From NCBI RefSeq assembly GCF_004010195.1, contig NC_057719.1, positions 8,754,066 to 8,818,065 on the forward strand: a stretch of DNA of 64,000 nt, written 5' to 3'. Numbering within the stretch: the first letter of the stretch is position 1; each line of letters opens with the position of its first letter. Below are positions 2,049 through 60,032 of the stretch, in pieces. A program made the translations under genes and the position numbers. The notes beneath the pieces are model-generated. The model made no database searches and had not been told where the DNA came from. It saw nothing but the letters and a program-made list of their open reading frames with translations. The DNA comes from Chiloscyllium plagiosum (Eukaryota).

Positions 2049-2085
2049 TATTCCTGATGAAGGGCTTTTCCCCGAAACGTCGATT
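2049..2085 (+). ncRNA. Minimal hammerhead ribozyme motif in PLE terminus
   Basis: CTGATGA(2054-2060)-AGGGCTTTTCCCC-GAAA(2074-2077)-CGTC; palindromic ACGT in place of stem III. Confidence 0.7.
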
Positions 2086-2319
2086 TTACTGCTCCTCCGA
2101 TGCTGCCTGAACTGCTGTGCTCTTCCAGCACCACTAATCCAGAATAACATTAGAATAATATAAAGTGAAACCATTTCCCACACACAAAGATAGTTGGAAA
2201 GTGGGATACTCTCTCTCTCTCTCTCTCTAACAATGCCTCCCTCCCTATCATGAGTCAATTATAAGGTTCACAACTGAAATTGACAGACCTTTGTTGCTTC
2301 AGGGTATCATATAAAGCCT

Positions 2320-2560
2320 CGTTCATTAGATACAGAAGCAGAATTAGGCCATTCGGCGCATCGGGTCTGCTCTGTCATCCAATCATGGCTGATATGCTCC
2401 TCACCCCCATTTTCCTGCCTTCTCTCCATATCCCTTCAATCCATTACCAATTAAAAAATCTGTCCAACTCCTCTTTGAATTTACTCACTGTCCAAGCATC
2501 CACCGATTTCCACAGATTCACAACCCTTTGGGAGAAGCATTTTCTCTTCAATTCTATCTG
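2320..2560 (-). mobile_element. CR1/HER1-type LINE 3' end
   Basis: AGGCCATTCGG...ATCATGGCTGAT...TTCCACAGATTCACAACCCT, as in other CR1 3' ends in the window. Confidence 0.7.
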
Positions 2561-2734
2561 GCTTTGCTTGTGTCCGGGTGCCCTTGCAGAGGGAGCAAAT
2601 TGGATCCATAAATACTCTCAATGTTTTTAGAGAGAGGTCGGTGAAATAACTTCACGGAGGCTGGTATGCCATCACTAAGTCACTCTTTATTTATAGGTGT
2701 AGAGTATATGACACTGACCCAGAGTGAACAAAAC

Positions 2735-2986
2735 CCAGTGGTTAGCGATGCTGTCTCACAGCACCAGGGACCCAGGTTCGATTCCAGCCTTGGGCGACTG
2801 TCTGTGTGGAGTTTGCACATTCTCCCCGTGTCTGCGTGGGTTTCCTCCTGGTGCTCTGGTTTCCTCCCACAGTCCAAGGTTGTGCAGGTCAGGTGAATTG
2901 GCCATGCTAAATTGCCCATAGTGGTCAGGGAGGTGTAGGTTAGGTGCATTGGTCAGGGGTAAATGTGGAGTAATAGGGTAGGGGAA
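2735..2986 (+). mobile_element. HE1-type V-SINE (tRNA-derived), 3' part missing
   Basis: B-box GGTTCGATTCC followed by V-domain CTGTGTGGAGTTTGCACATTCTCCCCGTG...CCATGCTAAATTGCCC. Confidence 0.85.
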
Positions 2987-2990
2987 TTTC

Positions 2991-3292
2991 AGATTAGATT
3001 AGATTACTTACAGCGTGGAAACAGGTCCTTCAGCCCAACAAGTCCACACCGACCCGCCACCCATCCAGACCCATTCCCCTACACCTAATGCTATGGGCAA
3101 TTTAGCATGGCCAATTCACCTGATCTGCACATCTTTGGACTGTGGGAGGAAACTGGAGCACCCGGAGGAAACCCACGCAGACACAGGGAGAATGTGCAAA
3201 CTCCACACAGTCAGTCGCCTGAGGCGGGAATTGAACTTGGGTCTCTGGCGCTGTGAGGCAGCAGTGCTAACCACTGTGCCACTGTGCCACCC
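2991..3292 (-). mobile_element. HE1-type V-SINE, full length
   Basis: Reverse-complement head GGTGGCACAGTGG, V-domain and (TCTAA)n tail. Confidence 0.9.
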
Positions 3293-3652: not shown

Positions 3653-3669
3653 AACCCCTGACATTCCTG

Positions 3670-4261
3670 GACTTAATATTGAGTTCAACATCTTCAAATT
3701 GTGAACCCACTCCCATTCCTTCCCTTTGTTTTAGTTTTACTTGTTATATTGCCCTCTCTCCCTCCCCCTACCCTAGTGGAACTGTTCTGTTCTTTACAAT
3801 TTGGCAGTCAGACACATCATTGTTCTGCAATCCTCACATTCTGATCACTTAATCTGAACTATCAAAGTCATTTCTCCCCCAGCACTCCACATGCCCCCCC
3901 CCCCCTTCCCCATCATTACATAAATGCTGCCCCCTCCACACTTCTCACCAACTCTGAAGAGTCACATAGACTTGAAACGTTAGCCTGCTGTCTCTCCGCG
4001 GATGCAGCCTGACCCACTGTGATCCCGTAGGAAAAAGTGAGGACTGCAGATGCTGGACATCAGAGTCGAGACTGTAATGCTGGAAAAGCGCAGCCGGTTT
4101 GGCCGCATCCGAGGAGCAGGAGAATTGATGTTTCAGGCATACGCCCTTGATCAGGAATGCCTGAAATGTCGATTCTCCTGCTCCTTGGATGCTGCCTGAC
4201 CTGCTGTGTGTTTCCAGCAACACACTCTCGACTGCTATGATCTCCAGCACAGTTTTGTTTT
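3670..4261 (+). mobile_element. PLE 3' terminal segment (family 2) with hammerhead motif, containing a nested palindromic family-1 mini-element (~4028-4233)
   Basis: CTGAAGA..GAAACGTT at 3954-3981; CATTCCTG duplicated at 3662-3669 and 4262-4269; internal fold-back centred near 4150. Confidence 0.7.
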
Positions 4262-4711
4262 CATTCCTGTTGACCTCTGCAACCGTGGCAGCCCCAATCA
4301 GGGAACTCTTATTCTATGAGGTCCACCTGGCTGACCTTGTTACAATCATGACAGTGGGCACCGCAGGGAGTGGGACACTTTATCTCCTCTTGCAATTCCA
4401 TTTTGATTTCGATCCCATTCCCTCTCCCTCACCTTTCATGCTCTGAGTGGGCTTTTCATGTAATCAATTGGAAAACTGAGTAACTGGTTAATGGATGGAA
4501 AAAAAACAATTCACCATGAGTGATTTGCTGATGGGAAAAATAAACGTTCAACTGTGTATAAGAGCATTTCTAGATATTAATGTAAAGCCTGAATGATGTG
4601 GAGCTCTTGTGGTACAGTGGTAGTGTCCCGACCTCTGAACCAGAACTTGGTTCCAGTTCCAGAGTTGTGTCGTAATATTTCTAGGTGTCTTTAAACCTAA
4701 AGCTTCTTTTT

Positions 4712-6922: not shown

Positions 6923-7020
6923 GAATGTGGAGATGCCAGAATGGGGCTGGGGTGGACCTGACCAAGCTTGTGATTTCAAATACACCTGTTGGACTATAAC
7001 CTGGTGTCATGTGACTTCTG
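6923..7020. mobile_element. Family-3 PLE-terminus mini-insertion inside a LINE 3' fragment (6780-7180)
   Basis: CCTGTTGGACTATAACCTGGTG core; TSD ACTCTCTCCC at 6913-6922 and 7021-7030. Confidence 0.7.
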
Positions 7021-7487
7021 ACTCTCTCCCTAATAGCAATGAGTTTCCTTATGTCACATGGTCGGCAATGGCTGAAGATGCCAGCTCACCACCTCTCAAG
7101 GGCAATTACACATAAGTAATTGGAATGGTGTATCCAGCAATGCCTACTTCATCTGAAAAAAGTGAACTTTAAAAAAAAAATGCATCAATTCACAGCATAA
7201 CCTTTACTGAATTACACTGGCTTGCAGTTTGACCATGACTGAGAATTTTAAAATTCTTATCCTTGTTTTTGAGTTTCTCTGTTGAGAAAGGGCTTCTTTC
7301 TCTCCCAGCAAACTGTACCGCTCCAATATCCATCTGAGATCTCTGCACTCTTCCAATTCTGGTCTGGTACACAACTATAATTTTAATCTCTCTGTCCACC
7401 ATTGGATGGACTTTCACGTGGCTAAACTGGGATTCTCTCCTTAGACCTCTCCCTTTGCGAACTTAGGACACTCCTTAGAAATATATT

Positions 7488-8179: not shown

Positions 8180-8370
8180 ATGTGGAGGTGCCAGTGTTGG
8201 ACTGAGGTGAACAAAGACAGAAGTCACACGACATCAGGTTATAATCCATCAGGTTGATTTGAAATCACAAGCTACCCCTTTGTCAGGTGAACATCACTTG
8301 ACGAAGATCCAAAAACTTGTGATTTCAAATCAACCTGTTGGACTATAACCTCGTGTCATGTGACTTCTGA
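8180..8370. mobile_element. Family-3 palindromic mini-element
   Basis: Inverted arms around ~8285; TSD CAAAGTCAATCCTG at 8166-8179 and 8371-8384. Confidence 0.8.
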
Positions 8371-9294
8371 CAAAGTCAATCCTGGTTATTGTCCCCTTGC
8401 ACTGTCACCCCTCCATTAAGAACATTAAGGGCATCAAACCATCCTGTGTGTATATTTAAGACTGAAACATATGAATTCTCGATCAGTAGGGGAATCAAGG
8501 GTAATGGGGAAGCTGTCGGAAAGTGGACTTGAGGAATGTCAGAGCGGGTCATTGAATGGTGGCGCAGGCTCGATGGGCCGAATGGCCTACTCCTGTTCCT
8601 ATTCCTCACAGACCTCTGGTCTTCATTGAGGTTTGTGACACTATAGGAAGGAGGGAAACTGTCACATAGTCAAATATCAGATGACAGGACAGAAGCCAGG
8701 GATGGTTAACCCACTTGAATCATCCTCGACACAATATCTTGCATAAGATAAAATTCACTGTGAAGGCAAATTGGAAAATAATGTAACACTTGACTTCTCA
8801 ACTTCAAACAGAGGAAGCACTTTGGGCATAACATTTGATGTTACTTCCTTTTTGAAGATGGAAACAGTTGATGATTCAAACAGTGTGCGCATCATGGAGT
8901 TATTGAGATTAAAAAAAAATTCCTGGTGCTCCCTAACAAAGACAGCAAATGAAAAAAGAAATTCCAGATCAAGAAAGCTTTTTCATGAAGTGGGAACCCA
9001 AAACTAGATGCTATGAATACATCAAGGATGATAGCGTCGTGGTTATGTTGCTGAGCTACTGATCAAATGCTCTCGACTTACAATCCAGAGAAATGAGCTG
9101 AAATCCCACTGCAGCAAAGCTCAGGAACTTACATTTTGTTAGTTAAATAAAAATTTAATAAGAATTCACTCATGCCCTTCATGGTAGTAATCTTGTATCC
9201 TTATCTCATCTGACCTACATGTGACTCCAGACACTCAGAAATGTGGCTCACTCTTAATTCATGAGCCAATTCTTTGCCTGAGAGAAAAGAAAAT

Positions 9295-9632: not shown

Positions 9633-11009
9633 ATGTGGAAGCTACTACCAGAGAGCAGTAATTGTGGTTGACAGCATAGGTGCATTCTGTAGATCACAAG
9701 ATGGAGGAAGGAACTGACCAGAAGCGTGAATGGGTTGGGTTGAATGGCTTGCAGTGTACTGCTGTGTAAATGTACACTGAAAGGGGGCAAGCAGTGAGCT
9801 TGACTGCTGGTGACAGGACTTTTAAGTAGCAAGGAAAGTTTGCTTCCACAATAAGAAAGTGCGGTGATCGGAATTGGAGTCGTCAGGGTTATGAAGGGCA
9901 AGGGCGAGGCTAATCCAGGCAAATTCCTCAGCATGGCACAGCTTTCAAATACCAAAGGACATGTGTTAAAAGTGGGATGTAAGGTATAGATGGAAAAATC
10001 AGGCAGAATTGTTTCACCCAAAGGGGATAGCTGTGTCGAATCTGTTAGCAGGGGAGACCACTGAAGCAGCTAGTATAAATGGATTTGAGAGGCAATTACT
10101 TGCAATTCTGGAGGGATACTGGGAGAGCTATCAAAAAGGGACAGGGTTTTAAAAACCTAATGGTCTGTTCCTGTTCCTATGAATCCTTGTCTTGTTACAT
10201 ACTGTTAACACATCCCAGTGGTGGATGTGGTTGACAATAAGTGCAACATTTTCAGTACACCATCAAACAAATCTGCTTCTGCTTCCCAGAAAACCCATTA
10301 AATCTGGCACCAGTGGACACTTACGGGGACTTGAAGACAACACAACAGGATAATGAGCGACTGCCTTCAAATTAACACAAGCATTTTGAATTGGTTCGGG
10401 ACAGAGGAGGAACTGGTTGATGACTGAATGTTGTTGAAATCATACGTCAGTGTGAACCGAACACAAGGCCACGTCAAGATCCAATTGCAATGTGGAAACA
10501 ACACAGGAACGTGGCCTCCTTCATTGTTTCAATCTTCTTTCCTGACATCGTCACAACCAAAGATCATCCACCCTCAGCACACAAGACATTTGGCACCATC
10601 CAGCATGAGGCAGCCTGTTTGTTTGGCACCACCAATATGCAGTGTCCACAGATCATAGAATCCTTACTGTGTGGAAACTAGCCATTTGGCCCATCGAGTT
10701 CACCGCGACGCCCCCCCCCCCCTGCCCCAAAAAGCATCCACCCAGATCCAGTACATTGACTTTACTGCTCCTCGGATGCTGTCTGACTTGCTGCGTTTTT
10801 CCAGCTTCACATCTATCCCCATTAAACTGTGCATTTCCGATGGCTAACCCACCCACAGTGGAACTTAACATTGCCAACAACCAAATGCTTTTAATACTAC
10901 GGAATGACCCCTTAGAGAGTTGGTAACAGCGCATCGCTATGGCACTACACTGATCCAGACACACTGCATTCAGCTGCTGTTGCATTCAAAGAATCATAGA
11001 ATCCATATA

Positions 11010-12097: not shown

Positions 12098-12957
12098 TCT
12101 GTGGAAAGAGCTGGGAGACGGAGCTGAAGCGTGGAGCTGACGTTTTAATATCGGATCAGACACAGTCATACTGGATGGTGCGGCAGGCCTGAGGGGCCGA
12201 ATGGAAAATCAGGCTGAACTGCGAGACCCAAAGGGGAATAGATGTCATGAATAAATTAGCACAGAAGGTCACTGGAGACAGACAGCGCGAATAGATTTGA
12301 GAAACAGTTATTTGTAATTCTGGGGGGGGGAGAAGTACCAAAAAGGGACAGGGTTAAAAGCCTAAGAATCTGTTCCTGTTTCTATTTCTGATGGTCTTAC
12401 AAGTAGTGTTGGTCAAACTATACTAAAATGTATACGCCAAGATTTCAAGTTAACTTCTTGGTGAGAGTCAGTCACTTGACATTTGTGAGCTCTCATCTTT
12501 TCCTCTCACGTCATGGCTAATCCTAACACAATACATTGTGTCCTGCGATCCTCAGAATTCAATGATCACATTTCTGAAACACAAAGTGTTGGAGCTCCTT
12601 CAAATGTTTATTCCAGCTCACACCGAGCACTGCAGGCTGACCTATCATTGCTCAAGAACCTCAAAACACAGAAGGATAGGCCATTTGCCACCTCCCCTCT
12701 GAAGCCTGCTCCACCAATCACTAAGATCATGGCTGATTGGATCAATTCCATTGACCTGTCTGACGACCCACCCCCATAACCGGTCACTCAGTTGTCAATG
12801 GCAAATCCGTCTATTCCAACCTTGAATAAATTCTACAACACAGCCTCCACATCCTTCTGGGGAAGAGAATTCCGCAGACTCACAGCCTTTTTGAGAGAAT
12901 AAAAAAATCCTCATCTCTGTCTTAAAAGGGGAACCTCTTATTCATGGACACACATCA

Positions 12958-14042
12958 CAGCTCTGATGAAGAATCATCTCGACTTGAAACATTAGCGTGC
13001 GCTCTCTCCACAGATGCTGCCTGACCCACTGCTGTTTATCATTCTTATAAATGACCTGGATGAGGGCGTGGAAGGATGGGTTAGTAAATTTGCAGATGAC
13101 ACTAAGATCGCTGAAGTTGTGGACACTGCAGATGGATGTTGCAGTTTACAGAGGGACTTAGATAAGCTGCACAGCTGGGCTGAGAGGTGGCAAATGCAGT
13201 TCAATGTGGAAAAGTGTGAGGTGATTCACTTTGGAAGGAGTAACAGGAATGCAGAGTACTGGGTGAATGGTAAGATTCTTGGTAATGTAGATGAGCAGAG
13301 AGACCTCGGTGTCCATGTCCATAGATCCCTGAAAGTTGCCACCCAGGTTGATAGGGTTGTTAGAAGGCATATGGTGTGTTAGCTTTTATTGGTAGAGGGA
13401 TTGAGTTTTGGAACTATGAGGTCATGTTGCAGCTGTACAAAACTCTAGTGTGGCCGGACTTGGAGTTTTGTGTGCAATTCTTCTCACTGCATTATAGAAA
13501 GGATGTGGAAGCATTGGAAAGGGTGCGGAGGAGATTTACCTAGCTGTTGCCTCGTATGGAGGGAAGGTCTTATGAGGAAAGGCTGAGGGACTTGAGACTG
13601 TTTTTATTAGAGAGACAAAGGTTGAGAGGTGACTCAATAGAGACATACAAGATGATCAGAGGAATAGATAGGGTGGGTAGTAAGAGCCTTTTTCCTCGGA
13701 TGGTGATGGCTAACACGAGTTGACACAGCTTTAAGTTGGGGGGGTGGGGTGATAGATAAAGGACAGATGTTAGAGGTAGATTCTTTACTTAGAGTAGTAG
13801 GGTTATGGAACGCACTGCCTGCAATAGTAGTGGACTCGCTAACTTTAAGGCATTTAAATGCTCATTGGATAAACATATGGATGATATTGGAATAGTGTAG
13901 GTTAGATGGGCTTCAGATTGGTTTCACAGGTCGGCACAACATCGAGGGCCAAAGGGCCTGTACTGCGCTGTAATGTTGTTTATCCTATGATCTCCAGCAT
14001 TTGTTGTTTTCAGTACAGATTCCAGCATCTGCAGTAATTTGC
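12958..14042 (+). mobile_element. Family-2 PLE terminus (hammerhead at 12963-12989) split by a CR1 insertion
   Basis: CTGATGA..GAAAC then CAGATGCTGCCTGACCCACTG | CR1 | TGATCTCCAGCATTTGTTGTTTTCAGTACAGATTCCAGC. Confidence 0.75.
13032..13987 (+). mobile_element. CR1/HER1 LINE, 5'-truncated RT C-terminus and 3' UTR (pseudogene)
   Basis: ORF 13014-13382 LFIILINDLDEGVEGWVSKFADDTKI...WQMQFNVEKCEVIHFG, then frameshifts. Confidence 0.93.
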
Positions 14043-17751: not shown

Positions 17752-17976
17752 TAGGAGAAAACGAGGACTGCAGATGTTGGAGATCAGAGTCAGAAAGTTT
17801 GGTGCTGGAAAAGCACAGCAGGTCAGGCAGCGTCTGAGGAGCAGGAGGATCGACATTTCAGGCATAAACCCTTCATCAAGATTCCTGACAAAGAGTTCAT
17901 ACTCAAAACATCGACTCTCCTGCTACTCAGATGCTGCCAGACCGGCTGTGCTTTTCCAGCACCACATTTTTCAACT
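17752..17976. mobile_element. Family-1 palindromic mini-element inside CR1 debris (17580-18360)
   Basis: GGTGCTGGAAAAGCACAGC...|...GCTGTGCTTTTCCAGCACC arms with decayed hammerhead cores at the centre. Confidence 0.8.
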
Positions 17977-22430: not shown

Positions 22431-22544
22431 CTCCACTTATGTAGCTCCCCACCAGCTGCTGAAAACGTACCAACCAGGGTGCATAAAATCTAGTCTTAAT
22501 CTAAACTGAGCTGGAAAATGGGGTTAGAGTAGTGACGGGGGGCC

Positions 22545-22715
22545 GAGAGTGTGTTGCTGGAAGAGCACAGCAGATCAAGCAGCATCCGAGGAGCAGGAGA
22601 ATCGACGTTTTAGGCATAAGCCCTTCATCAGGAATGAGGCTTGTGGGTCGGGAGGCTAGAGATAAATGAGAAGGGTGGGGCTGGGGGGAAGGTAGCTGGG
22701 AATATGATAGATAGA
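22545..22715 (-). mobile_element. PLE 3' terminal segment (family 1)
   Basis: Minus TTCCTGATGAAGGGCTTATGCCTAAAACGTCG (GAAA mutated); homologous to 1990-2140. Confidence 0.8.
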
Positions 22716-23109
22716 ATGATGCATTTGTTTTTTCCCAGTGCAGACTCAATGGGCCAAATGGCCTCTTTTGTTCTGTACTGTATATCTTGAGTAGTGAGCT
22801 TTTGTCTGAGGTGTTAAATTGAGGTCCCATCTGCTTTGCCCTGGTATTGTTTCAAGGAGTATTCAGGAAGTTCTTCAAGGTCAATATTGACCCTTTGACT
22901 AACCCTAACCCCTCTAAAAAACTCGACACAAATCCAGAGAGTCCAAGAAAAACTCAGAAGGTCTGGTATCTGTGCAGGAAGAAACAGAACTAACAGTTCG
23001 AGTGTGGTATAACTGAAAAGGGTTGGAAATTATTTCCATATTTTCGAAAGAGGCAGAAGAGGGATGAAGGGAACAGATGGTGTGGAAGTCCTGTGTACAA
23101 GATAAAGCA

Positions 23110-23304
23110 AAAAAATCACACAACACCAGGTTATAGTCCAACAGGTTTATTTGGAAGCACAAGCTTTCAGAGTATAAGCTAGCTCCCTGACGAAGGAGCA
23201 GCGCTCCGAAAGCTAGTGCTTCCAAATAAACCTGTTGGTCTATAACCTGGTGTTGTGTGATTTTTAATTTTGTCCATCCCAGTGCAACATCGGCTCCTCT
23301 ACAT
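23110..23304. mobile_element. Family-3 palindromic mini-element with intact hammerhead motif
   Basis: CTGACGA(23187-23193)-A-GGAGC-AGC-GCTCC-GAAA(23208-23211)-GCTA; TSD CAAGA(T/C)AAAGCA at 23098-23109 and 23305-23316. Confidence 0.82.
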
Positions 23305-23379
23305 CAAGACAAAGCAGTTGTTAACAGTGTTATAAGAGAGTAAGAGATGTACACCCAGTGATCTTAATTCCAAACGTTT

Positions 23380-27480: not shown

Positions 27481-28224
27481 GAGTCCAGTGATAATACCAC
27501 TGGCGTACCACCAATCATTTAGCCCTGTGAACTATATCTAATTCCATGAAAACATTCAATGTTTTTGCTTCAACTGTTTTCTGCAGCAGAGAATTCCACA
27601 GGCTCCCCACTTTCTGGGTGAAGACATTTCTCCTCATCTCAGTCCTAAATGTATCTGCAGACTGTGACTGCAGGTTCTTGAGACCCCAGTTATTGGGATT
27701 GTCATGGGAGGAGGGATTCTGCCTCCTTCATCCTGGACAGAACACTACTTAAAATTTAACAGCTACTTTTAGTCCTGGTAATCAAGTTAATGATATGTCA
27801 GCTCTGGCTCAATGGATAACAGACTCCTTTCTGAGGTGAGTATGTCATGAGTTCGAGTCCTATATCGGAGACGAGAGATGAAAATCCAGGCAGATAGTTA
27901 ATTATAGCACCAAGGAAATGCCCATTGAACACTTGACTTTTGACTTGTTGGGTGAGAGATGTGAACAAACAAAGATCCCTGCACTATCTTGAGTAGACAC
28001 ATTGGTGGTCTCCATAGTGTTCCAGTGACAATGAACTGACAACACCAAAAGAGGTCATTACTGCCTCACTGTTTCATGGGATTTTACTCTATGCAAATTG
28101 GCTTCCACCTCAGAACAGTGGCTTCACCTCAAAAAAAGAGGAATTTCTTCCCTGGCTTGGAGATGTCCTGAGGTGGACAATATGACATACAAATTCAAGT
28201 CCTTTGTTTATAAGTTCATCTGTG

Positions 28225-36859: not shown

Positions 36860-37035
36860 ACTATCACACAATACCAGGTTATAGTTCAATAGGTTTATTT
36901 GGAAGCACTGGCTTTTGGAGTGTTGCTTCTTCTTCAGGGAGCTTGTACTTTCAAATAAATCTGTTGGACTATAACCTGGTGTTGTGTGATTTTTAACTTT
37001 GTACACCCCAGTCCAACACTGGCATCTCCACATCA
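36860..37035. mobile_element. Family-3 palindromic mini-element
   Basis: ATCACACAATACCAGGTTATAG / CTATAACCTGGTGTTGTGTGAT arms; TTTCTGAA on both flanks. Confidence 0.8.
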
Positions 37036-37570
37036 TTTCTGAATTGGGTACGTGGTTATTTTGTGGACAGGTGAATGACCCGTTAGACTTTCTTAAAAGA
37101 TCATCCTCCCTCAGCTAATACCCCTGAGATTGCATTGATATCTGCACTCCTCTAGTTCTGAACTCACTTCACCTGACCTCACTTTCATCCCATAAGACAT
37201 TCCTACTTATTTGACTGAGATTTTAGTCATATGTCCTCATACCTTCTAATGTGGCTTGGTTTCACACTTTGTTTAATAATGGCCTCATTAAGTGCCTCAG
37301 ACTGTTTTGCCACATTAAAACTGAGATGGAAAGTATAAATTATTGTTAATATCTTAGCATGCCACAGGAAAAATATATACTTTGTGCTCAGATATTCATG
37401 TATGCTTCATTGTCTTTGCAATTAATTCAATTTGCTGAATCAAGCATTGTTTTTTTTCTGTTATTTGATTGCTTCATTTTCTTTCATAAATTTGATCCCT
37501 ACTTATAGCCATGACTAAAATGGTTTGACAATGTGTTTTTACTCTTTGTTTTAGGGATACTGTTTACCTA

Positions 37571-38621: not shown

Positions 38622-39088
38622 AGGTGGCACGGTGGCTGAATGGTTAGCACTGCTGCCTCACAGCGCCAGGGACCCGGGTTCAATTCCCATCTTGGGCAAC
38701 TATCTGTGTGGAATTTGCACATTCTCCCCGTGTCTGCGCGGGTCTCCTCCGGGTGCTCCGGTTTCCTCCCACAATCCAAAGATGTGCAGGTCAGGTGAAT
38801 TGGCCATGCTAAATCGCCCGTAGTGTTAGGTGCATTAGTCAGGGGTGAACGTAGGGGAATGGGTCTGGGTGGTAAAAACAATGACTGCAGATGCTGGAAA
38901 CCAGATTCTGGATTAGTGGTGCTGGAAGAGCACAGCAATTCAGGCAGCATCCTCGGATGCTGCCTGAATTGCTGTGCTCTTCCAGCACCACTAATCCAGA
39001 ATGGGTCTGGGTGGGTTGCTCCTCGGAGGGTTGATGTGGACTTGTTGGGCCGAAGGGCCTGTTGCCACACTGTAGGGAATCTAATCTA
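38622..39088 (+). mobile_element. HE1-type V-SINE interrupted by a fold-back mini-element
   Basis: Head, V-domain, tail; insert at 38873-38998. Confidence 0.92.
38873..38998. mobile_element. Family-1 perfect-hairpin mini-element
   Basis: 48-bp perfect arms 38905-38952 / 38955-39002; 16-bp perfect TSD GAATGGGTCTGGGTGG at 38857-38872 and 38999-39014. Confidence 0.9.
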
Positions 39089-39508: not shown

Positions 39509-39712
39509 GTTAAAAATCACACAACACCAGGTTATAGTCCAACAGGTTGATTTGGAAGCATAAGCTTTTGAAGCGCTGCTCCTTCGTCAGGTAGCTAGGA
39601 GGAGTGGTGCTCTGAAAGCTAGTGCTTCCAAATAAACCTGTTGGACTATAACCTGGTGTCTTGTGACTTTTAACTTTGTCCATGTCAGTCCAACACTGGC
39701 ACCTCCACATTA
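39509..39712. mobile_element. Family-3 palindromic mini-element
   Basis: Inverted arms; TSD TGTTTCTTTA at 39499-39508 and 39713-39722. Confidence 0.82.
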
Positions 39713-40479
39713 TGTTTCTTTATGTTAGCTTGCCCTAAATAAAATCTCTGTTCTAAGCCATCCAATACACATCAATGCTTCTTTATCTATTACAATATGA
39801 TTGATCATTACTCAACTTCCATCATCTGATTTTAATATGAGTCCTTTCATGGAGTGAAGGGATTTTTAAACAGGACAAGTGCTGACTTGAAATAGCTGTA
39901 GATTTTGGCAAGCTTAGTGAAACCTGTATGAGATGTACAGAATCCACCTGTATTGTGATGTTCATTTTATACAATGACCATGAAACCAGACAAATAACTC
40001 AGTGTTAAGAAATTTGCATCTTCAGTTTAATCCATATTTGTATGAGAAGTTGAATGTGTTGAAGATCACAGAGTTGTCTACAACTGTTCAATTTGAAAGG
40101 ACAATGGAGCTAGGCTCAAGAATATACAAATGAACCCTATTTCAATTGCTGTCCTTCCAAACAGCCCAAAATGTTGACTTTCCTGCTCCTCGGATGCTGC
40201 TTGATTGGCTGTGCTTTTCTAGCACCACACTCTTTGACTCCTTCCAAACAGCAAAGCAGATTAAAGAATATGGATGGTTGTGAAAAACTGGGTGGCATGG
40301 ACAAGTTGGGCCGCAGGACCTGTTTCCAGGCTGTAAACTTCAATGACTCATTATAAGAGAATCTGAAAGATCTCTCTAAAATTCTCTAAAACTCCAAAAT
40401 TCCCAGTGAAAATGAGGAAACAGCCATTCACCAAGAATTCTAGAATGCTATTATTACAGAAGAAACAAGAGAGCAACAC

Positions 40480-48830: not shown

Positions 48831-49614
48831 ATTTTCCGAACTGTCTCTGGCTTGATAATTTTCTGAGTAACACCAATATTACTACTACACCATCTCACCC
48901 ACTTGCTCTGTTAGCCTGGCCTGAGTCCCCTGTTAATCTCTGATGGGCTTTCTTTTTAACCACAGGGAATATAAGGGCACCAGATGGAAGCCTTGCATTT
49001 CCAAAATGAATTAAATACACACAACGCAATCACAGTATGTTCCCACGAACTTTGAGCTTTATTGTCCACACAGTCTTGCTTGGCTGTCATTGTGGCCTCC
49101 TGCAACTGTGAATCTAATCTGATTGTGTTCAGGGCTTCATTAAAGGAGAAATAAATAGGATTTGTAACTAAATAGAAAAATGGGTCTGTGACACAACATT
49201 AGGGACTCAGATAATGAATTTCTGACAGTTTGTTATGCTAATCTAATACAATCTGGTTTGCTAATATTAAATGTAATGGTATGCTGGATACAACTGAGGC
49301 AATTAGATGGTTAGAATTTTATTCACAATCCCATAAATTCATTACTGGCTGCAGTTAGATTGCATACATAAAGGATGGGTAATTAACTTTCCAGCTGGAT
49401 CTTTGATGGGAGGGAAAATGCAGCAAGATGAAATGGGACAGCTTGTGATTGTGATCTCAAAGCTGGCCTTGCTGTAACCCAGTCCCTTCGAGCTCTGAAT
49501 GCTGACAGAAGCTCGGCTCCTCGCTAATTTCTCCTGAGGGTCAGCACGCGGCGAGCGCAAAGACAGCGGGAGAAAAAAACAAACAGTTCATCCGTCAAAA
49601 GATTATGGCTGATC

Positions 49615-49810
49615 GAGTTTTGAGAAGATTTGTAGCTCAGGTTGAGGTTCTGGATGTAGGTTTGCTCACTGAGCTGGGAGGTTCATTGCCAGATGTTTCG
49701 TCACCCTACTAGGTAACATCTTCGCCCGGGGGCCCACTGAAGATGTTACCTAGTAGAGTGATAAAACCTCCGGAAATGAACCTTACAGCTCAGCGACCAA
49801 ACCTACATCT
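49615..49810. mobile_element. Family-4 palindromic mini-element (related to the PLE at 59294)
   Basis: Arms with CTGAAGATGTTACCTAGTAG(A/G)GTGA..AAAC; TSD AGATTA(T/C)GGCTGATC at 49600-49614 and 49811-49825. Confidence 0.82.
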
Positions 49811-50289
49811 AGATTACGGCTGATCTGATTGTTGCCTTAACTCCACTTTCCTGTTCACTCCTCATGACCTTTGACCCTCTTGTATTTTAAAAGTATCGAT
49901 AGTCGCATTCTTTGGTGCCCTCTGCCCCTTTTTTTCTTCTGAGTGGTGGAGATAACGGGAAGAGATGCAAGATGGAAATCTAAACTTTCAGGATAAGGGT
50001 CACTCTGCACTTTTTTTATCCCTAAACAACATAGCTACCGTCCCTAAGCTTGACGCATTAGAGCATGCACCTCATGTTTAGTCACCATCCCTATTAGAAC
50101 TTCAGGATGTTGTCACTCTTCTTGACCAGCTGAGGACTAACCAGAGTTCCAATAGCAGCCAATGTCCCATTGGGTACCACCTCCAAATGGGGCATTCAGT
50201 TGGCAATGGTCCCCAGCCCCACAGGGATCAGTGTAAACTGGAACTGAGTGAAGAGTTCTCAGATTTGAGGAGTGCAGAAATCACATACT

Positions 50290-52819: not shown

Positions 52820-53100
52820 CGAGTTTGGAGAAGATTTGTAGCTCAGGTTAAGGTTTTGGATGTAGGTTTGCTCGCTGAGCTGCAAGGTTCACTTCCAGAC
52901 GTTTCGTTACCTTACTAGGTAATATCTTTAATGAGCCTCAGGTGAAGCAATGCTGAAAATTCCTGCTTTCTATTTATATGTTTGGGTTTCTTTGGGTTGG
53001 TGATGTAACCTGAGAAAAGGAACCGGAAGTGACTTCACCATAGGAAATAACATCACCACAGGAAATGACATCACTAATGCAGCTCCGCATGAAGGTGCTG
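52820..53100 (-). mobile_element. Family-4 PLE terminal repeat
   Basis: GAGAAGATTTGTAGCTCAGG...GACGTTTCGTTACCTTACTAGGTAATATCTT matches the 49615 element. Confidence 0.75.
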
Positions 53101-53134
53101 AGTGATCGACACATTGTAGGCAAGAGGATGGCCA

Positions 53135-53545: not shown

Positions 53546-54685
53546 TTAGAATGGGGGTCGGTTTCACTCGCTTGGCTGGACGGATAGTTTGTGATACAGA
53601 GTGATGGCAAAAGTGTGGGTTCAATTCCTGCAGTGGTTGTGATTACCATGAAAACCCCCTCCTTGACTGATTGATTGTCACATGCACCATAGTACAGTGA
53701 AACGCTTTGTTTACAAGCAGTACATGCAGATCATAGTAAACAAGGATATGCAGATCAAAAAGACTTAGACAGAGGCAATCAAAATACATTGCTTATTGAG
53801 GCTAGAGAGTCCATTCCAGGAAAAAGCTGTTCCTGAACCTACTGGTGCATGGGTTTAGGTTTCTGTGTCTTCTCAACGTTTTCCCATGTGTGGGTCTTAG
53901 TGACCCTCAGGTTAAACCACCACCAGTCATCGCTCTCTAATAAGAGAGCAGCCCCCATGATCTGGGAAGACTGTGGCAACTGTACCTTTACAGAGTGAAA
54001 CTGTTCCAACCCAGGAAACATGCTCTGCACCCCTGCCCAGTGCAATCACACCTGTCCTAAAGTGCAGTGACCAGAGCCACATACAGTAGTCTGCACAGAG
54101 GGACCAGGGTTTTGGATGAACCGACGTTTCCGGGGGGTTGGCAGCTGGACAGGAACTGTCTGGGAACAGGCAATGCATGTGGAATAAAGACATGAACAAG
54201 GCTTTCAGTGGCAATGGAACTGAGATGGTAATGTATTAGTAATGGCATGGATATGCAGTCAGGTCATCATGGGATCAAAATCTCCCAATTTCTGACGAAA
54301 CACACCAGCCCAGTGTCAGGATCCTGCACCGTGCTCCAGGAACTCAATAACACATTGGGCACGGGATAAAGCACATTATTGCACCAATGCACTAAGTGAC
54401 AATGTTTTCTTTAGTCACAAACAGCTGAAATTAGACAAGAGAAAAATATAAATCCATTAAAAATCGACTCGAGCGAAAGCAATTTCAAAGACCATTTATC
54501 CGTAATATCTCCCCTGGCTTCAATCAACGATAGATCAACATGAAGCTCTGCAGGAGGATTATTTTGCCAAGCCCAAGGTTGGCTACTATCAGAGGCTTTT
54601 AACTAGATGCTGTACTTTGGACAAACAACCTGGCACTATCCTTTCACGTGAGTTTGCCCTTACATGTTGGCTTATGTAGGTTAAG

Positions 54686-54866
54686 CGCAGCAGGCCAGGC
54701 AGCATCCGAGGAGCAGGAGAATCGACGTTTCGGGCATAAGCCTTTCTTCAGGCTTATGCCCGAAACGTCGATTCTCCTGCTCCTCGGATGCTGCCTGGCC
54801 TGCTGCACTTTTCCAGCACCACACTTTTCAACTCTGGTCTCCAGCATCTGCAATCCTCACTTTCTC
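54686..54866. mobile_element. Family-1 perfect-hairpin mini-element with intact minus-strand hammerhead
   Basis: 57-bp perfect arms 54687-54743 / 54750-54806; minus CCTGAAGAAAGGCTTATGCCCGAAACGTCGATT; 15-bp TSD CTTATGTAGGTTAAG at 54671-54685 and 54867-54881. Confidence 0.9.
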
Positions 54867-56087
54867 CTTATGTAGGTTAAGTCTTACTCCGGCAAGTTCA
54901 GACTTGGTTGTCATCATCTCAGTTTAAAAGCACTCAATGTGTGACAACTTTTTCTCAAACAGTTCATCTCTCAAGGTTATCCTCTGTTGCTGGGGCCCAC
55001 TGACTCCAAGACTGAGAATCAAAGGGCCTCCTGAGACATCCCACTCATTTTCCCTTGCGTATCTCCATCCAGAATTCCCGCAATCCCTGACCTGGATAAA
55101 TAACCCACCATGCAGTTTCCCATTGCTCCACCCAGCAATTAGATTGTAGTTGGTCTACTCACTTCGGTTCCATCTCTCTCAGATTCCTTTACTTAAATAA
55201 AATGACCAATCTCAGTTTTGAGATTGATCCACATAGCCTCCCGCAGCTTTGTAGGGGAGACATTGACCAGAAACTGAAATGGACCCACCACATTAAAAAC
55301 ATTGGGTAGGTGAATGGCTCGGAATACTACCGTGAGTAACTCAGTCCCTGACTTCCCAAAGCCTGTTCACCATCAACAAGGCACGAGTCAGGAGTATGAT
55401 GGAATGCTCCCCAATTTCCTGAACTGGGTGAAGCTCCAGCAACGCTCAGAAAACTTGACAATATCCATCCCAAAGCAGCTTGCTTGATTGGCACCACATC
55501 CACAAATCACGACTCTCTCCACTTCAGGAATAAGGAGGAGGTCATTTTGGATTGAAAGGTGGAATCACACTCAGTAGACAGCAGTGTAGACTCTCTACAA
55601 GAAGCATCATAGCAACTCACAAAACCTCCTTTGATGGAAATATCTGTACCCACAGGTGAAAATGTGCTGCTCAAAATCATTCCTAATGGCCAGGTTCTCG
55701 TGCAAAGGTGAACCTTTGAAATTCTCTACAACAGACAGACTTTGTTTATATTAAAGGCTCAGACTGTAGAGGTTTTGGATACTCCGATGGGATGAAGGGA
55801 TTAGGCAGGAAGATGGGAGGTGGAGTTGAGGATCCATTATGATCACACTGAATGGCGGAGCAGACTCGAGAGGTTTATTCCAGCTCCAGCGCTCCAACGT
55901 TATCCATGGAATATTCAGGAAGAGGTGGACACTGGCCAGGATGCTGGGGAAAACTCCTCTGCTCTTCAAAAATGACATCCATTCAAGGTCAAATAAGCCT
56001 GAGGTTAATGCGCCATCCAAAAGGGGAAGCATTTCCTCAGGGTAACATTGAACCCTCAGTCTGGATTGAGCTGCTTGAGTCTATGGA

Positions 56088-56172
56088 CCTGATGAAGGAG
56101 CATCGCTCCGAAAGCTAGTGTGCTTCCAATTAAACCTGTTGGACTATAACCTGGGGTTGTGTGATTTTTAAC
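56088..56172 (+). mobile_element. Solo family-3 terminus with intact hammerhead, in a Deu-SINE
   Basis: CTGATGA(56089-56095)-A-GGAG-CATCG-CTCC-GAAA(56110-56113)-GCTA; TSD TGAGT(C/T)TATGGA at 56076-56087 and 56173-56184. Confidence 0.82.
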
Positions 56173-56269
56173 TGAGTTTATGGAGTGGGACATGCATTGA
56201 CTCAGTCCACTGACTCAGGCTGACAAGTGAAATTGCAGCAAACTGCTCAACACAGTATTTCCATAGAAA

Positions 56270-57580
56270 CTCAGAAACCAAAGGACAGCAGTAGGCCATT
56301 CAGCCCTTCAAACCTGCTTCTCCATTCGAAATGATCACGGCTGATCATCCAACTCAATGCCCTTTTCCCACTTTCTCCTTGGGACTCCATTAGCCCCAAA
56401 ATTACATTTAATTCCTTATTGAAAACATTCAATGTTTTTGGCTTAATACTTAGCACTGCTGTCTCATAACGCCAGGAACCTGGGTTTGACCCCCAGCTTT
56501 CTGTGTGGAGTTTGCACATTCTCCCTGTGTCAATGCGGGTTTCCTCCGAGTACTCCGGTTTCCTCCCACAGTCCAAAGATGTGCAGGTTAGGGTGGATTG
56601 GCCATGCTAAATTGCCCCATAGTGCAATCTAGATAGGTTAGCAATGGGAAATGTAAAATATAATTCTATATTTTGGCCTCATCCATTTTTGTGGTAGAGG
56701 CTTCCATAGGTTCACCACTCTCTTTGTAAAGAAATTTCTCTTCATTTCAGTCCTCAGTGGCCAGCCCCATATCCTGAGAGTGTGACCCTTGGTTCTGGAC
56801 TCTCCTGCCCTCAGGAGCATCTTTCCTGCATTTGCCCTGCGTCGCCTGGTAGAATGTTATTGATTTCTGTGAGATCCCACCTCCCCCCCACCAACCCCCA
56901 TTGTTCTAAACTCCATTTGACTCCCAGCTTTCTGTGTGGAGTTTGCATTCTCCCTGTGTCTATGCGGGTTTCCTCCGGGTGCTCTGGTTTCCTCCCACAG
57001 TCCAAAGATATGCAGGTTAGGGTGGATTGTCCATGCTAAATTGCCCCATAGTGCAGTCTAGATAGGTTAGCATTGGGAAACGTAAAATATAATTCTATAT
57101 TTTGGCCTCATCCATTTTTGTGGTAGAGGCTTCCATAGGCTCACCACTCTCTTTGTAAAGAAATTTCTCTTCATCTCAGTCCTCAGTGGCCCGCCCCATA
57201 TCCTGAGAGTGTGACCCTTGGTTCTGGACTCTCCTGCCCTCAGGAGCATCTTTCCTGCATTTGCCCTGCGTCGCCTGGTAGAATGTTATTGATTTCTGTG
57301 AGATCCCACCTCCCCCCCACCAACCCCCATTGTTCTAAACTCCAGTGAGTATAGTCCTAACTGACTCAGTCTGTCTTCAGACATCAGTCCTACCATCCCG
57401 GGAATCAGTCTGGTAAACCTTTGGATAATCTCTCCGTCGCCATAGCATACACAGATTTTTAAAAAATGAAAACTGCAGCAATATTCCAGGCGTGGTGTCA
57501 CTGACGCCCTGGACAATTGCAGCAAGACACCCCTGTTCCTGCACTTGAATCCTCTTCCTAAACTTGACAACGCCAGCGTG
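56270..57580 (-). mobile_element. CR1 3' fragment containing an HE1 SINE, with a ~430-bp tandem duplication
   Basis: GESRTKGHTLRI..EMKRNFFTKRVV occurs twice; IQRFTRLIPGMVGL..RLSQLGLYSLEFR. Confidence 0.88.
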
Positions 57581-58975
57581 CTCCCTCTCCATGGATGCTG
57601 CCTGACCCGCTGTGATCTGCAGCTCTTTTTGTTTTCAGTACAGATTCCAGCATCTGCATTAACTTGCTCCTGCAATTAATATTCTTCCCTGACTGCTGCA
57701 CCTCCAAGGGCATGTTGGGAAGGGAAAGCAATATTAGCCTTCTACATCCAGAGTGGGGGAAGATGGGTGAAGTTACAGAAACTGGATTATCTGGTCACTA
57801 TCCCTTTGCCGTTTGCTATTTGATTGCTCTGAAACAGAGATTGCAGTTCCTTTACTGGCTGTAAAACAATTCAGGACCCGCTATTGTGAAAGGCACTACA
57901 ACAATGCAGGAACTTTATTTAGGGAACACAAGGACCGGTCTGACATGACTAGCAGCAGAAGAATACTCCAAAAACTGCATGCGTTGGAAGCCCATTGCAA
58001 AAAAAAGAAATTGCACTTCAAAAAAGATAAAGATGGACCTAAGATCAACCCAGGATTCTGAGATACAAGTGGGGATTAAATGGAGCACAATCAAAGACTG
58101 CACTCCCACCTCCCCAACTGAGGGATATCTAATGATGGAGCATATTGTGTATGAGAGCAAAACATTTCCATTTAAGGAGCTATCAGCTAGACACTTCTTC
58201 AATATCTGGTGTAGTGAAGCATGAGGGCCTGGGGGTTAAATATGTGAAGGATACTGGAATTCACAATGACAAACGCAGAATCAGCACCATGGACAGAGAT
58301 AGACTCAGCGACTCTTCGGATTTGTCAGAGCAGAAGGAGGCCATTCGACCTATGATGTCTGCACCAGCTCCCGTGAGAAATAGAGAGTTCAGGGACTGTG
58401 GAGCAGATAAAGGGCTCAGGGTGTGGGGGACAGAGAGAGGGCTCAAGGAGTAAGCTGCAGAGAAAAGACTCATTTGTACTTATATTACTTCTAAATGTGA
58501 CCATTCTAATGCTTCCACCTTCCATAAATCCAGGCTCTGCCAAACGTTCTGGCACCCACTGTGTCCCAGCACCAACACTCATTCATTCATCGCCTCTGAC
58601 CAGGGAGATGTACACTGACTCCTGATCAAACAGTAGCTCAATTTTAAAATTCACATTGTGTTTTGAAACCCTTCCGTGGCCTTGGTCCTTCAGTGTCCGG
58701 CCATCCCCTTCAATCTGATGACCCTTGGGGAGCTCTGTGCTCCTCTAACGCCAATCTCTAATGCATGTTCAAACATTAATCATTCTCGTTCAGACCAACT
58801 ACTTGGGAAACAATGGCCTTGTGGTATTATTGCTGGGACATTAATCTAATGACCAACTTAAATTTCTGGGGGCCAGGATTCAAATCCTACTGATTGCAGA
58901 TAGTGTAATTTGAATTCAGTTTTTAAAAATCTGCAGTTAAAAGCCTAATAATGGCTGTGACACTGTTGGTGATTG

Positions 58976-59280
58976 TTAGATTAGATTTCCCAGTGTGCAA
59001 ACAGGCCCTTCGGCCCAACCAGTCCACACTGACCCTCCGAAGAGTAACCCACCCAGACCCATTTCCCTCTGGCTAAAGCACCTGACACTATGGGCAATCT
59101 AGTACAGCCAATCCACCCTGACCTGCACATCTTTGGACTGTGGGAGGAAGCCGGAGCACCCGCAGGAAACACACACAGACACGGGGAGAAGGTGCAAACT
59201 CCACACAGACAGTCGGCCGAGGCTGGAATCAAACCTGGGACTTTGTTGCTATGACACAGCAGTGCTAATCACTGTGCCAC
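58976..59280 (-). mobile_element. HE1-type V-SINE nested in a MetaSINE-like copy (58805-58975, resuming 60080-60220)
   Basis: Tail, V-domain and head; host SINE continues after the PLE. Confidence 0.88.
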
Positions 59281-59479
59281 AGAGTTGTAAACAAAGTTTG
59301 GGAGAAGATTTGTAGCTTAGGTGCTCGTTGTTGTGGTTCTGTTCGCCGAGCTGGGAATTTGTCTTGCAAACGTTTCGTCCCCTGTCTAGGTGACATCCTC
59401 AGTGCTTGGGAGCCTCCTGTGAAGCGCTTCTGTGATGTTTCCTCCGGCATTTATAGTGGCCTGTCCCTGCCGCTTCCGG

Positions 59480-59947
59480 AGCATTTCCAAACTGACAGCC
59501 AGAGAACTGCGACCACTAGGACTCATAACAGCACACAAACCAACAGCCACCCTCAGACAACAACTCACCAGAACAAAGGACCCGATACCCAACATGAGCA
59601 AAACCAATGTAGTGTACAAAATCCCATGCAAGGACTGCACAAAACACTACATAGGACAAACAGGAAGACAGCTAACGATCCGTATCCATGAACACCAACT
59701 AGCCACGAAACAGCACGACCAGCTATCCTTAGTAGCCACACACGCAGATGACAAGCAACATGAATTCGACTGGGACAACACTAACATTATAGGGCAAGCC
59801 AAACAGAGAACAGCCAGGGAATTCCTAGAGGCATGGCACTCATCTACAGACTCTATCAACAAACACATCGACCTGGACCCAATATACCGGCCACTACAGC
59901 GGACAGCTGGAACTGACAACTGGAAGCGGCAGAGACAGGCCATATAA
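59480..59947 (+). CDS. GIY-YIG endonuclease domain of PLE ORF (N-terminally truncated, frame open)
   Basis: NVVYKIPCKDCTKHYIGQTGRQLTIRIHEHQ...HEFDWDNTNIIG..REFLEAWHS..SINKH; the track's start at 59432 lies in the inverted repeat. Confidence 0.9.
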   Translation, partial: SISKLTARELRPLGLITAHKPTATLRQQLTRTKDPIPNMSKTNVVYKIPCKDCTKHYIGQTGRQLTIRIHEHQLATKQHDQLSLVATHADDKQHEFDWDNTNIIGQAKQRTAREFLEAWHSSTDSINKHIDLDPIYRPLQRTAGTDNWKRQRQAI

Positions 59948-59992
59948 ACACCGGAGGAAACATCACAGAAGCGCTTCACAAGAGGCTCCCAA

Positions 59993-60032
59993 GCACTGAG
60001 GATGTCACCTAGACAGGGGACGAAACGTTTGC
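59993..60032 (+). ncRNA. Minimal hammerhead ribozyme motif (identical copy on minus strand at 59366-59405)
   Basis: GCA-CTGAGGA(59996-60002)-TGTCACCT-AGAC-AGGGGAC-GAAA(60022-60025)-CGTT-TGC; stem I GCA/TGC. Confidence 0.75.

Follow-up and report, generated by a model that had tools for sequence, protein, structure and literature searches.

The question raised by the 64,000-nt stretch of Chiloscyllium plagiosum contig NC_057719.1 analysed here (hereafter the window) is what its many short, hammerhead-bearing insertions are, how they were made and whether their motif acts as a ribozyme. The role of the hammerhead in Penelope-like elements (PLEs), and whether minimal hammerheads cut in cells, are stated as open in the literature cited below. 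We propose, with a probability of about 0.7, that the insertions are dead pseudo-LTR (pLTR) end-pieces of six PLE families, that Neptune-type stubs stem from run-off at the 5' end of element RNA that was capped and uncut, and that U6 RNA was joined to that RNA after a ribozyme cut. The kind of element and the motif are already known; the handle on in vivo cutting is the testable addition.

The core was searched as CTGANGA-N-stem II-GAAA with a 4-nt palindrome, in which a base between 9 and 10.1 must be allowed since most sites are otherwise missed. The pattern scan found seven exact minimal-hammerhead cores in the window. Core and palindrome are exact at 23187+, 31404+, 56089+, 59996+ and 59402-, further exact cores being present at 2054+, with a stem mismatch, and at 12963+, where stem and tetramer have decayed. 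The first-pass annotation, made from the letters of the window, had placed the first four correctly and noted the mismatch at 2054+, whereas its core at 59366 minus, which is exact, lies at 59402-, 59366 being the low end of that copy. Moreover, 59366 minus and 59996, listed as separate positions, are the arms of one 779-bp insertion. Three other positions need correction: 54752-, given as a family 1 core without mismatch, has G10.1 changed to A; 3954, given as an ordinary family 2 core, misses 3 nt after the core; and 49738, given with stem GTCACCT..AGGGGAC, is 49737, where AAAA replaces GAAA and the stem GTTACC..GGTGAC is that of a sister family.

Rfam, proposed earlier as a means to check the motif, is silent on it: a scan of the window at E<=1 gave 16 matches, none to a hammerhead model. 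The pattern CTGANGANGN{7,16}CGAAA matches the whole genome 240,063 times, against 3,425 for its reverse, hence the motif is not due to chance; the pattern is sequence-only and about 45% of its matches are expected to pass helix tests. These tests were performed on 155 fixed-step 10-kb stretches (1,490,050 nt in all) with 110 core matches against 3 reversed ones: stem II of at least 4 bp, palindrome, H17 and stem I of at least 2 bp are combined in 49/110 and 0/3, respectively. Helix II has at least 3 bp in 96 of the 110 matches; it measures 4-6 bp in families 1, 2, 3, 5 and 6, and 3 bp followed by a bulge in family 4. Stem III is replaced by a palindromic tetramer, ACGU or AGCU, followed by an NUH triplet and intact in 74/110 matches, most of the other tetramers resembling CpG decay. 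Helix I is 3-6 bp long in families 2-6 as well as in one family 1 subtype; the two commonest forms of family 1 have just 2 bp plus one mismatch.

Since neutral decay is expected after insertion, the informative comparison of conservation is that across families. All six have CUGANGA and GAAA, one base between 9 and 10.1 and the G10.1-C11.1 pair; the catalytic core is invariant, whereas stems I and II differ in letters yet stay paired, as had been noticed for stem II. Among copies, core and flank score 0.97 and 0.93, a comparison set aside as biased by picking copies for having the core start. Single-strand folding gave the hammerhead as lowest-energy fold in 1/11 copies, which has little weight for a motif thought to be dimeric. 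Judged by sequence, the motifs of the window are the minimal type I hammerhead ribozymes (HHRs) described for PLEs by Cervera and De la Pena (2014, PMC4209133), as the first-pass annotation had recognised: every feature matches, including core, extra base 9/10.1, G10.1-C11.1, palindromic 15.2-16.2 and short helix I. That paper also describes several families per genome, mostly solo motifs and opposite-strand pairs 100-700 bp apart, as found here. The largest counts in its available text are ~4,000 in coelacanth and ~9,000 in Xenopus tropicalis, against ~240,000 exact cores here; its supplements may hold shark motifs or counts.

At least 23 insertions were delimited by hand in the window (Table 1), where about 15 had been estimated. 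Seventeen of the 23 measure 59-225 bp. Head-to-head pairs make up 11 of the 23, and in many insertions the core is damaged or missing. Most had been said to have their own TSD; in 14/23 the TSD scores higher than every one of 39 random controls. There are indeed several distinct families, six rather than "at least four"; the sixth, with stem GGGTC..GACCC, was absent from the earlier account.

Table 1. PLE-derived insertions delimited by hand in the window (window coordinates)
Position	Strand	Element	Features	TSD
760..2145	+	Family 1 (Neptune-type), 5'-truncated	RT remnant at 809-1159, then N gap and 3' UTR; core 2054 with cut predicted after 2081; left end placed approximately	Not found
3875..4265	+	Family 2 with 3' UTR	Core 3954 damaged by 3-nt deletion; split by head-to-head family 1 insertion ~4030-4249	
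6926..7022	.	Family 3 subfamily	Inverted tail and direct piece, no core	14 bp
8181..8371	.	Family 3 subfamily, head-to-head	Decayed core	14-19 bp
10752..10810	+	Family 1 piece without core	Within SINE	Not found
12957..13030	+	Family 2 stub	Exact core 12963, stem/tetramer decayed	Not found
17752..17976	.	Family 1 head-to-head stub	Two decayed cores	11 bp, probable
22533..22900	-	Family 1 with 3' UTR	G12 lost through CpG decay; 5' boundary approximate	
23112..23307	.	Family 3 head-to-head stub	Exact core 23187+	12 bp
26675..27520	-	Family 1 with endonuclease remnant and Cys linker	Decayed core	
31403..31491	+	Family 1 stub	Begins 1 nt ahead of exact core 31404; predicted cut after 31431 (GUC)	21 bp
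32625..32848	.	Family 6 head-to-head stub		7-bp duplication, inside random-control range
36860..37036	.	Family 3 head-to-head stub	Decayed core	8 bp
38873..38999	.	Family 1 head-to-head piece	No hammerhead; within SINE	16 bp
39511..39711	.	Family 3 head-to-head stub	Core 39590- without G12	10 bp
40164..40239	+	Family 1 stub	Begins within stem II	14 bp
49613..49812	.	Family 5 head-to-head stub	Poseidon-type sister of family 4; two damaged cores	15 bp
52820..53100	-	Family 5 with upstream sequence	Damaged core; 5' boundary approximate	
54685..54868	.	Family 1 head-to-head stub	Core 54752-, G10.1 to A	15 bp
56088..56173	+	Family 3 stub	Exact core 56089; cut predicted after 56117 (CUA), followed 11 nt later by the poly(A) signal ATTAAA	12 bp
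57559..57672	+	Family 2 piece with tail	No core	No clear TSD
59293..60071	.	Family 4 (Penelope/Poseidon-type), single insertion	Inverted arm with exact core 59402-, GIY-YIG remnant 59423-59947+, exact core 59996+	11 bp
61915..62002	+	Family 6 piece without core	Within SINE	10 bp

Families 1-4 are linked to RT and/or GIY-YIG remnants in broken copies, with Pfam scores that are weak or absent; the links of families 1 and 4 within the window had been reported correctly. RT followed by C-terminal GIY-YIG is found in families 1, 2 and 3 and just the endonuclease part in family 4, and the five long loci read (L111-L115) are all 5'-truncated and broken, with no intact ORF among them. Between RT and endonuclease, families 1 and 3 have a Cys linker, C-X4-C-X2-C, which is decayed in the single copy examined of family 2 (468 copies by relaxed pattern), a copy that aligns to family 1 at 39%, and which is absent before the family 4 endonuclease. 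Families 1, 2 and 3 are classed as putatively Neptune-type by the CX2-5CxxC linker. The insertions had been taken for a short retroelement class, with families 2 and 3 partnerless in the window; since these two families have RT and GIY-YIG partners elsewhere in the genome, the pieces are PLE ends and not a separate short element. The optional 30-40 nt tail, the head-to-head inverted copy and the TSD are all present and, like the pLTR TATA and initiator, the C-terminal GIY-YIG and the Neptune Cys linker, are described for Adineta vaga Penelope and the Neptune/Poseidon clades (PMC3846280, PMC8557442). A PDB sequence search with an RT piece and a Pfam search with six other ORFs of the window gave no match.

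Copies stop at two fixed 3' points (231/253 in family 1, 81/84 in family 3), shared by short pieces and long copies. Likewise, Poseidon of Anolis carolinensis (Frangieh et al. 2024, PMC11167929) is described as starting RT at two internal sites separated by 30-40 nt, which gives the optional tail, and as carrying an HHR at the pLTR-ORF junction. Reads from a poly(A) single-cell run place a poly(A) site of family 3 RNA ~30 nt beyond the predicted cut, with 449 + 538 loose poly(A) ends among 3,619 reads, 11-14 nt after A(A/T)TAAA; host transcripts and a related species are possible sources of these reads, which show no transcription start. The hexamer is ATTAAA or AATAAA in 51/66 genomic copies and an A-run at the site is found in 0/66. 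Family 1 reads represent both strands, and 93% continue into other sequence; the loose ends listed include no poly(A) end.

Automatic TSD calling recovered just 21/210 simple copies of the fixed-step sample, too few to define 5' ends, hence extension against long copies was used instead. Stubs of families 1 and 3 begin at an initiator-like A, 0-14 nt upstream of the core: the 5' end lies <=14 nt from C3 in 101/106 short family 1 and 35/37 short family 3 copies, the next 135 nt accounting for 5 and 2. TATAAA stands 30 nt upstream of the family 3 start A. The start A is usually preceded by G where the element has C. In family 3 genome-wide, 1,870/2,934 non-C bases before it are G, whereas an internal control site has G in 14 of its first 100 (hand count); family 1 has 70 G and 30 A before the start in the first 100 of 10,486 (hand count). 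These starts and the extra G are as expected if, in the Neptune-type families, reverse transcription ran off a 5' end that was capped and uncut. Of 22 loci with the G that were read over their whole length, 9 have it next to an inverted arm able to template it. Poseidon-type families 4 and 5 have no 5' pile-up at the core, 16/17 copies each retaining upstream sequence (by eye).

Alternatively, the stubs could result from ordinary 5' truncation, RT from the downstream repeat stalling past the hammerhead fold and the G arising via microhomology or untemplated addition. Truncation is usual in PLEs, 96/260 family 1 copies begin within or past the core, and filler or short inversions are frequent at junctions. 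We nevertheless consider this unlikely: the drop is steep and coincides with the initiator-like A which, in family 3, follows TATAAA by 30 nt; the G is bound to the start position (64% vs 14%) and occurs in both arms of one palindromic insertion (L273/L274); and the poly(A) site of family 3 RNA lies ahead of the RT start sites, where no genomic A-run is found. The Neptune-type short copies were probably copied into DNA from the front end of element RNA that was capped and still uncut. Reverse transcription would start 55-97 nt beyond the predicted cut and run off that end. If the start A, predicted 4 nt before C3 in families 1, 2 and 6 and 8 nt in family 3, is the transcription start and the G a copied cap, the hammerhead would form the first 32-37 nt of the mRNA. 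Head-to-head junctions are explained by self-priming on an antisense template in PMC3846280 and PMC8557442, whereas here two copies of the capped sense leader would account for the stubs.

Extrapolation from the fixed-step sample gives ~0.7 million short insertions that have TSDs and defined ends. This abundance bears out, with the genome-wide core count, the earlier claim of a very abundant element. It might also be expected of a non-autonomous SINE- or retrozyme-like class that is itself transcribed and then copied again by PLE enzymes; a stub might retain an internal promoter such as that of Drosophila Penelope, and Chlamys elements have non-autonomous derivatives. This seems quite improbable, given that the stubs have sequence and both 3' ends in common with long coding copies, lack the upstream TATA and open with the hammerhead rather than a tRNA-like head, no tRNA being called, and that head-to-head junctions vary between copies. 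Tandems are rare as well: a same-strand neighbour within 400 nt was found for 14/253, 2/41 and 5/84 copies (21/378), and the window holds no tandem array of hammerhead-bearing units. Non-LTR retrozymes (PMC7229834; bioRxiv 10.64898/2026.07.22.740005) are comparable in their type I hammerheads, link to PLE pLTRs and copy number, reported up to 120,000 in axolotl, but are described as tandem arrays expressed as circular RNAs, whereas the stubs are dispersed, single or head-to-head. The bioRxiv study sampled one chondrichthyan and its supplement may hold shark motifs or counts.

Evidence on cutting comes from U6. Nine of 64 U6 motif matches run into a PLE end, representing eight events in families 1, 3 and 4; in 8/8 the U6, with its 5-T end, is joined at the predicted cut, and in 0 of 8 at the cap site. 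These junctions back the GUC and CUA triplets predicted earlier and suggest that the motif cuts in vivo. Chimeric U6/L1 pseudogenes formed via RtcB (Moldovan et al. 2019, PMC6789731) likewise combine the five-U end of U6 with retroelement RNA and are retrotransposed, but their junctions are described as variable, whereas all eight here lie at the predicted ribozyme cut. The available text of PMC4209133 gives no evidence on 5' ends, caps or cleavage in vivo, and that of PMC11167929 reports protein-assisted cleavage in vitro and no RNA reads that stop at the cut; unlike there, U6 chimeras mark the cut here and Neptune-type stubs the likely capped start. Among plain copies no cut-site peak was seen (4/260, 1/92, 1/45; hand-read lists are flat too), and family 1-family 3 chimeras at the cut, expected from trans-ligation, were not found in 2.03 Mb, other pairs being indistinguishable. 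Retention of the motif as a promoter or protein-binding element that has lost ribozyme function would accord with this missing peak, the weak family 1 stem I, the poor in vitro cleavage described for minimal HHRs and the in vitro insertion of Anolis HHR mutants, for which the ribozyme is not needed (PMC11167929), but is very improbable in view of the junctions at the scissile bond in three families and the invariant core with differing, paired stems.

According to our reading of capped run-off stubs and cut-dependent U6 chimeras, the ribozyme would cut in the germ line and leave a 5'-OH, which an RtcB-type ligase would join to U6, the PLE enzyme then copying the chimera from its usual start sites. 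The weakest steps are that one hammerhead at each transcript end would pair via the palindromic tetramer, and that long copies would derive from a cut-and-ligated circle or a template jump between ends. More tentatively, the Neptune-type pLTR could work like a retroviral U3-R-U5, with a promoter, a ~65-nt repeat consisting of the hammerhead beginning at the cap, and then the poly(A) site; RT start sites past that site would be present only at the 5' end of the RNA. Copying of uncut RNA would yield abortive stubs, whereas cutting by both hammerheads, end-to-end pairing and RtcB ligation would give a circle and thereby long and tandem copies, making the ribozyme an abortive/productive switch and the U6 chimeras mis-ligated by-products. 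Several hundred thousand copies form a record of copied RNA templates, in which a probable cap site, the two sites of RT start and, via U6 chimeras, the cut are preserved. As dispersed hairpins and, in family 3, poly(A) signals, the stubs may also affect the host.

A core scan that allowed a single nucleotide to separate A9 from stem II gave seven exact minimal type I hammerhead ribozyme (min-HHR) cores in the window, all at sites already marked in the first-pass annotation; three further sites of that annotation proved to be altered (table). Insertions of Penelope-like element (PLE) ends were delimited by hand, which gave 23 from six families, 17 of them 59-225 bp long and 11 in head-to-head arrangement. 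The earlier estimate of about 15 insertions was too low, and that of at least four families holds as a minimum. In 14 of the 23 the target-site duplication is better than the best of 39 random controls. Copies of a SINE family and remnants of CR1-type RT are also dense in the window, and we take these to resemble shark repeats.

Hammerhead cores and other repeats, by position in the window or in loci (L) fetched from the genome
Position	Strand	Feature	Remarks
2054	+	exact core	
12963	+	exact core	
23187	+	exact core	
31404	+	exact core	
56089	+	exact core	
59402	-	exact core	part of a single insertion with 59996
59996	+	exact core	part of a single insertion with 59402
54752	-	altered core	G10.1 to A
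3954		altered core region	3-nt deletion
49737		altered core	AAAA replaces GAAA; sister family, not the one first assigned
38873-38999		head-to-head family 1 insertion	arms join ~17 nt past the cut
10752, 38873, 61915		PLE pieces	lie within SINE copies
2736-62094		SINE family	>20 copies; TTAGA-type tails; several head-to-head
13471-15691		inverted arms, CR1-type sequence	273 bp, 86%, 1,675 nt apart; second pair within
18403-19278		minisatellite	32-bp unit, 27.5 copies; related sequence at 16066-16137
35393-35570		minisatellite	15-bp unit, ~12 copies
56485-57344		tandem duplication	429 bp, 96% identity; contains SINE sequence; either recent or an assembly artefact
L005, near 1500		family 1 arm	joined head-to-head on family 3 stub
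L261, near 1500		family 5 arm	joined head-to-head on family 3 stub
L290, 318-424	-	full U6 copy	fused to unrelated sequence; translation possibly zinc-knuckle-like (by eye)

In the whole genome (3.556 Gb) the core pattern CTGANGANGN{7,16}CGAAA has 240,063 matches, compared with 3,425 for the reversed pattern. A fixed-step sample of the 23 largest contigs, made up of 155 stretches of 10 kb (1,490,050 nt), contained 110 matches versus 3 reversed; stem II has at least 3 bp in 96 of these 110 and the palindrome is present in 74, while all helix tests were passed by 49 when stem I of at least 2 bp was required and by 23 with at least 3 bp. Exact family patterns retrieved 3,097 copies of family 3 and 468 of family 2, with none for the controls. 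When decayed copies are included, the sample holds 253 ends of family 1, 84 of family 3 and 41 of family 2/6, which, scaled to the whole genome, corresponds to some 0.9 million ends and 0.7 million insertions, families 4 and 5 not being counted. The high abundance proposed from the window alone is therefore borne out. The largest numbers in the work cited here are 9,000 min-HHRs (PMC4209133) and 120,000 canonical retrozyme copies (PMC7229834; bioRxiv 10.64898/2026.07.22.740005).

In clean copies the sequence of stem II varies by family and its pairing is kept. Stem I likewise varies yet pairs (AUUC/GAAU, AGCU/AGCU, CAC/GUG, GCA/UGC, UCA/UGA, AGUU/AACU or AGCU), the two commonest family 1 forms having only 2 bp plus a mismatch. 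The family motifs share the min-HHR features listed by Cervera and De la Pena, who also report solo copies and opposite-strand pairs (PMC4209133), in agreement with the initial identification as minimal hammerheads of PLE termini. An Rfam check of the window gave no matching hammerhead model. The motif and its PLE carriers were already known; a literature search judged from listings, in a collection lacking most subscription papers, turned up no paper that counts shark min-HHRs or describes PLE stubs marked by a cap or chimeras of U6 and PLEs.

Families 2 and 3 had been described as lacking a coding partner, which does not hold beyond the window. Among 30 loci chosen by an ORF end, 17 have a family 3 core a few hundred nt downstream of that end. 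Four long family 3 loci combine a broken RT with a C-X4-C-X2-C linker and a GIY-YIG domain, the RT piece being 35% identical to the family 1 RT of the window. In one family 2 locus, remnants of RT and endonuclease (EN) stand immediately upstream and share 39% identity with the EN region of family 1 in the window. None of the copies retrieved is intact. By the linker, given as a mark of Neptune by Craig et al. (PMC8557442), families 1-3 are classified as putatively Neptune-type. The family 4 GIY-YIG domain is without the Neptune linker, and family 4 would by this criterion be Penelope/Poseidon-type.

The 3' ends fall at two points, one 47-66 and the other 84-97 nt beyond the predicted cut, and one of these is used by 231 of 253 family 1, 81 of 84 family 3 and 31 of 41 family 2/6 copies. 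They are the same feature as the optional tail that Frangieh et al. (PMC11167929) explained by a pair of internal RT start sites.

The 5' ends pile up at the core. The core start is present in 164 of 260 family 1 copies, 58 of which extend far upstream, and 101 of the 106 short copies end within 14 nt of C3, the core position used as reference; for family 3 the core start is present in 55 of 92 copies, 18 extend far upstream and 35 of the 37 others end within 14 nt. At the pile-up, long copies have initiator-like sequences (TCATTCC, TCAGCT, TCAGTT, CCACAACC), and family 3 has TATAAA 30 nt upstream of the initiator A, a combination of TATA and initiator with a precedent in the Adineta pseudo-LTR (PMC3846280). 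The element base before the start A is C. Family 3 copies with another base there have G in 1,870 of 2,934 cases, compared with 14 of the first 100, mostly point mutants, in a hand count at an internal control site. A hand count of the first 100 of 10,486 family 1 copies gave 70 G and 30 A, T being left out as some long subfamilies carry it there. The family 2 start is itself palindromic. Untemplated G is a mark of the copied cap in L1 and SVA (PMC4859970). Of 30 fully read loci, 22 carry the G. Counting against a copied cap, in nine of these it adjoins an inverted arm, a possible source of the base; most of the remainder have filler or flank ahead of the G, and one palindromic insertion has it in both arms. 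Families 4 and 5 displayed no pile-up at the core. The pile-up position is probably the cap site, and the short insertions starting there (stubs) would arise from run-off copying of uncut RNA. As in the head-to-head insertion at 38873, 12 of 260 sampled copies begin about 17 nt past the cut, possibly cross-matches of families 2 and 6. In the genome junction lists many copies show short deletions between small repeats within the hammerhead, from loop to tetramer or from core start to cut region.

RNA ends were taken from 2% of the reads of one poly(A) single-cell run, whose source organism may differ from C. plagiosum. The family 3 end collected 3,619 reads, mostly of a single strand, with poly(A) ends at two points (449 and 538 reads) 11-14 nt past A(A/T)TAAA and about 30 nt beyond the cut. 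Of 66 genomic family 3 copies, 51 have ATTAAA or AATAAA as this hexamer, and none has a genomic A-run at the poly(A) points. Family 3 RNAs can therefore end short of the RT start sites, although the reads may stem from a few host genes, and those sites would then remain in the 5' repeat only. This step applies to family 3 only, because family 1 reads are two-stranded and host-like, with no poly(A) end among the read ends listed.

Plain copies beginning at the cut are in no excess over neighbouring positions (4 of 260, 1 of 92 and 1 of 45). Two genome-wide lists of near-cut junctions have 1,275 and 627 entries; when the first 100 in each were read by hand, each gave about five clean cases, no commoner at the cut than at adjacent positions. 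Evidence on cleavage comes from U6 chimeras. The U6 3'-end motif, a pattern that overlooks copies with C at the final position, has 64 genome matches (control 7), nine of which represent eight events running into a PLE end: six in family 1, one in family 3 and one in family 4. These eight loci were fetched for reading together with one non-PLE match; Rfam detects U6 in four of them, the other four being shorter U6 3' pieces. In all eight the first base past the predicted cut comes directly after the five-T end; for family 4, whose direct arm is altered, this was taken from the inverted arm (product beginning with T). Seven chimeras stop where RT usually starts, and in the family 4 case the direct arm is short. 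None of the eight joins U6 to the cap site, though no other template end is nearly as common. Hammerhead cleavage yields a 5'-OH. U6 has a five-U end with a cyclic phosphate, and RtcB ligates it to RNA that begins with a 5'-OH (PMC6789731). We infer that the ribozyme cleaves in the germ line, and the findings provide solid indirect evidence on cleavage in cells. Since U6-SINE chimeras exist, template switching may be another source of U6 chimeras; even so, the PLE template had to start at the cut. By eye, about 14 of the 64 matches lead straight into the abundant SINE head.

Beyond germ-line cleavage, hammerheads might pair end-to-end, and long copies could conceivably come from a circle or a template jump. 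Cervera and De la Pena put forward circles (PMC4209133), and retrozyme RNA was circularised by RtcB in vitro (PMC7229834). The cross-family head-to-head joins in L005 and L261 suggest template switching between families.
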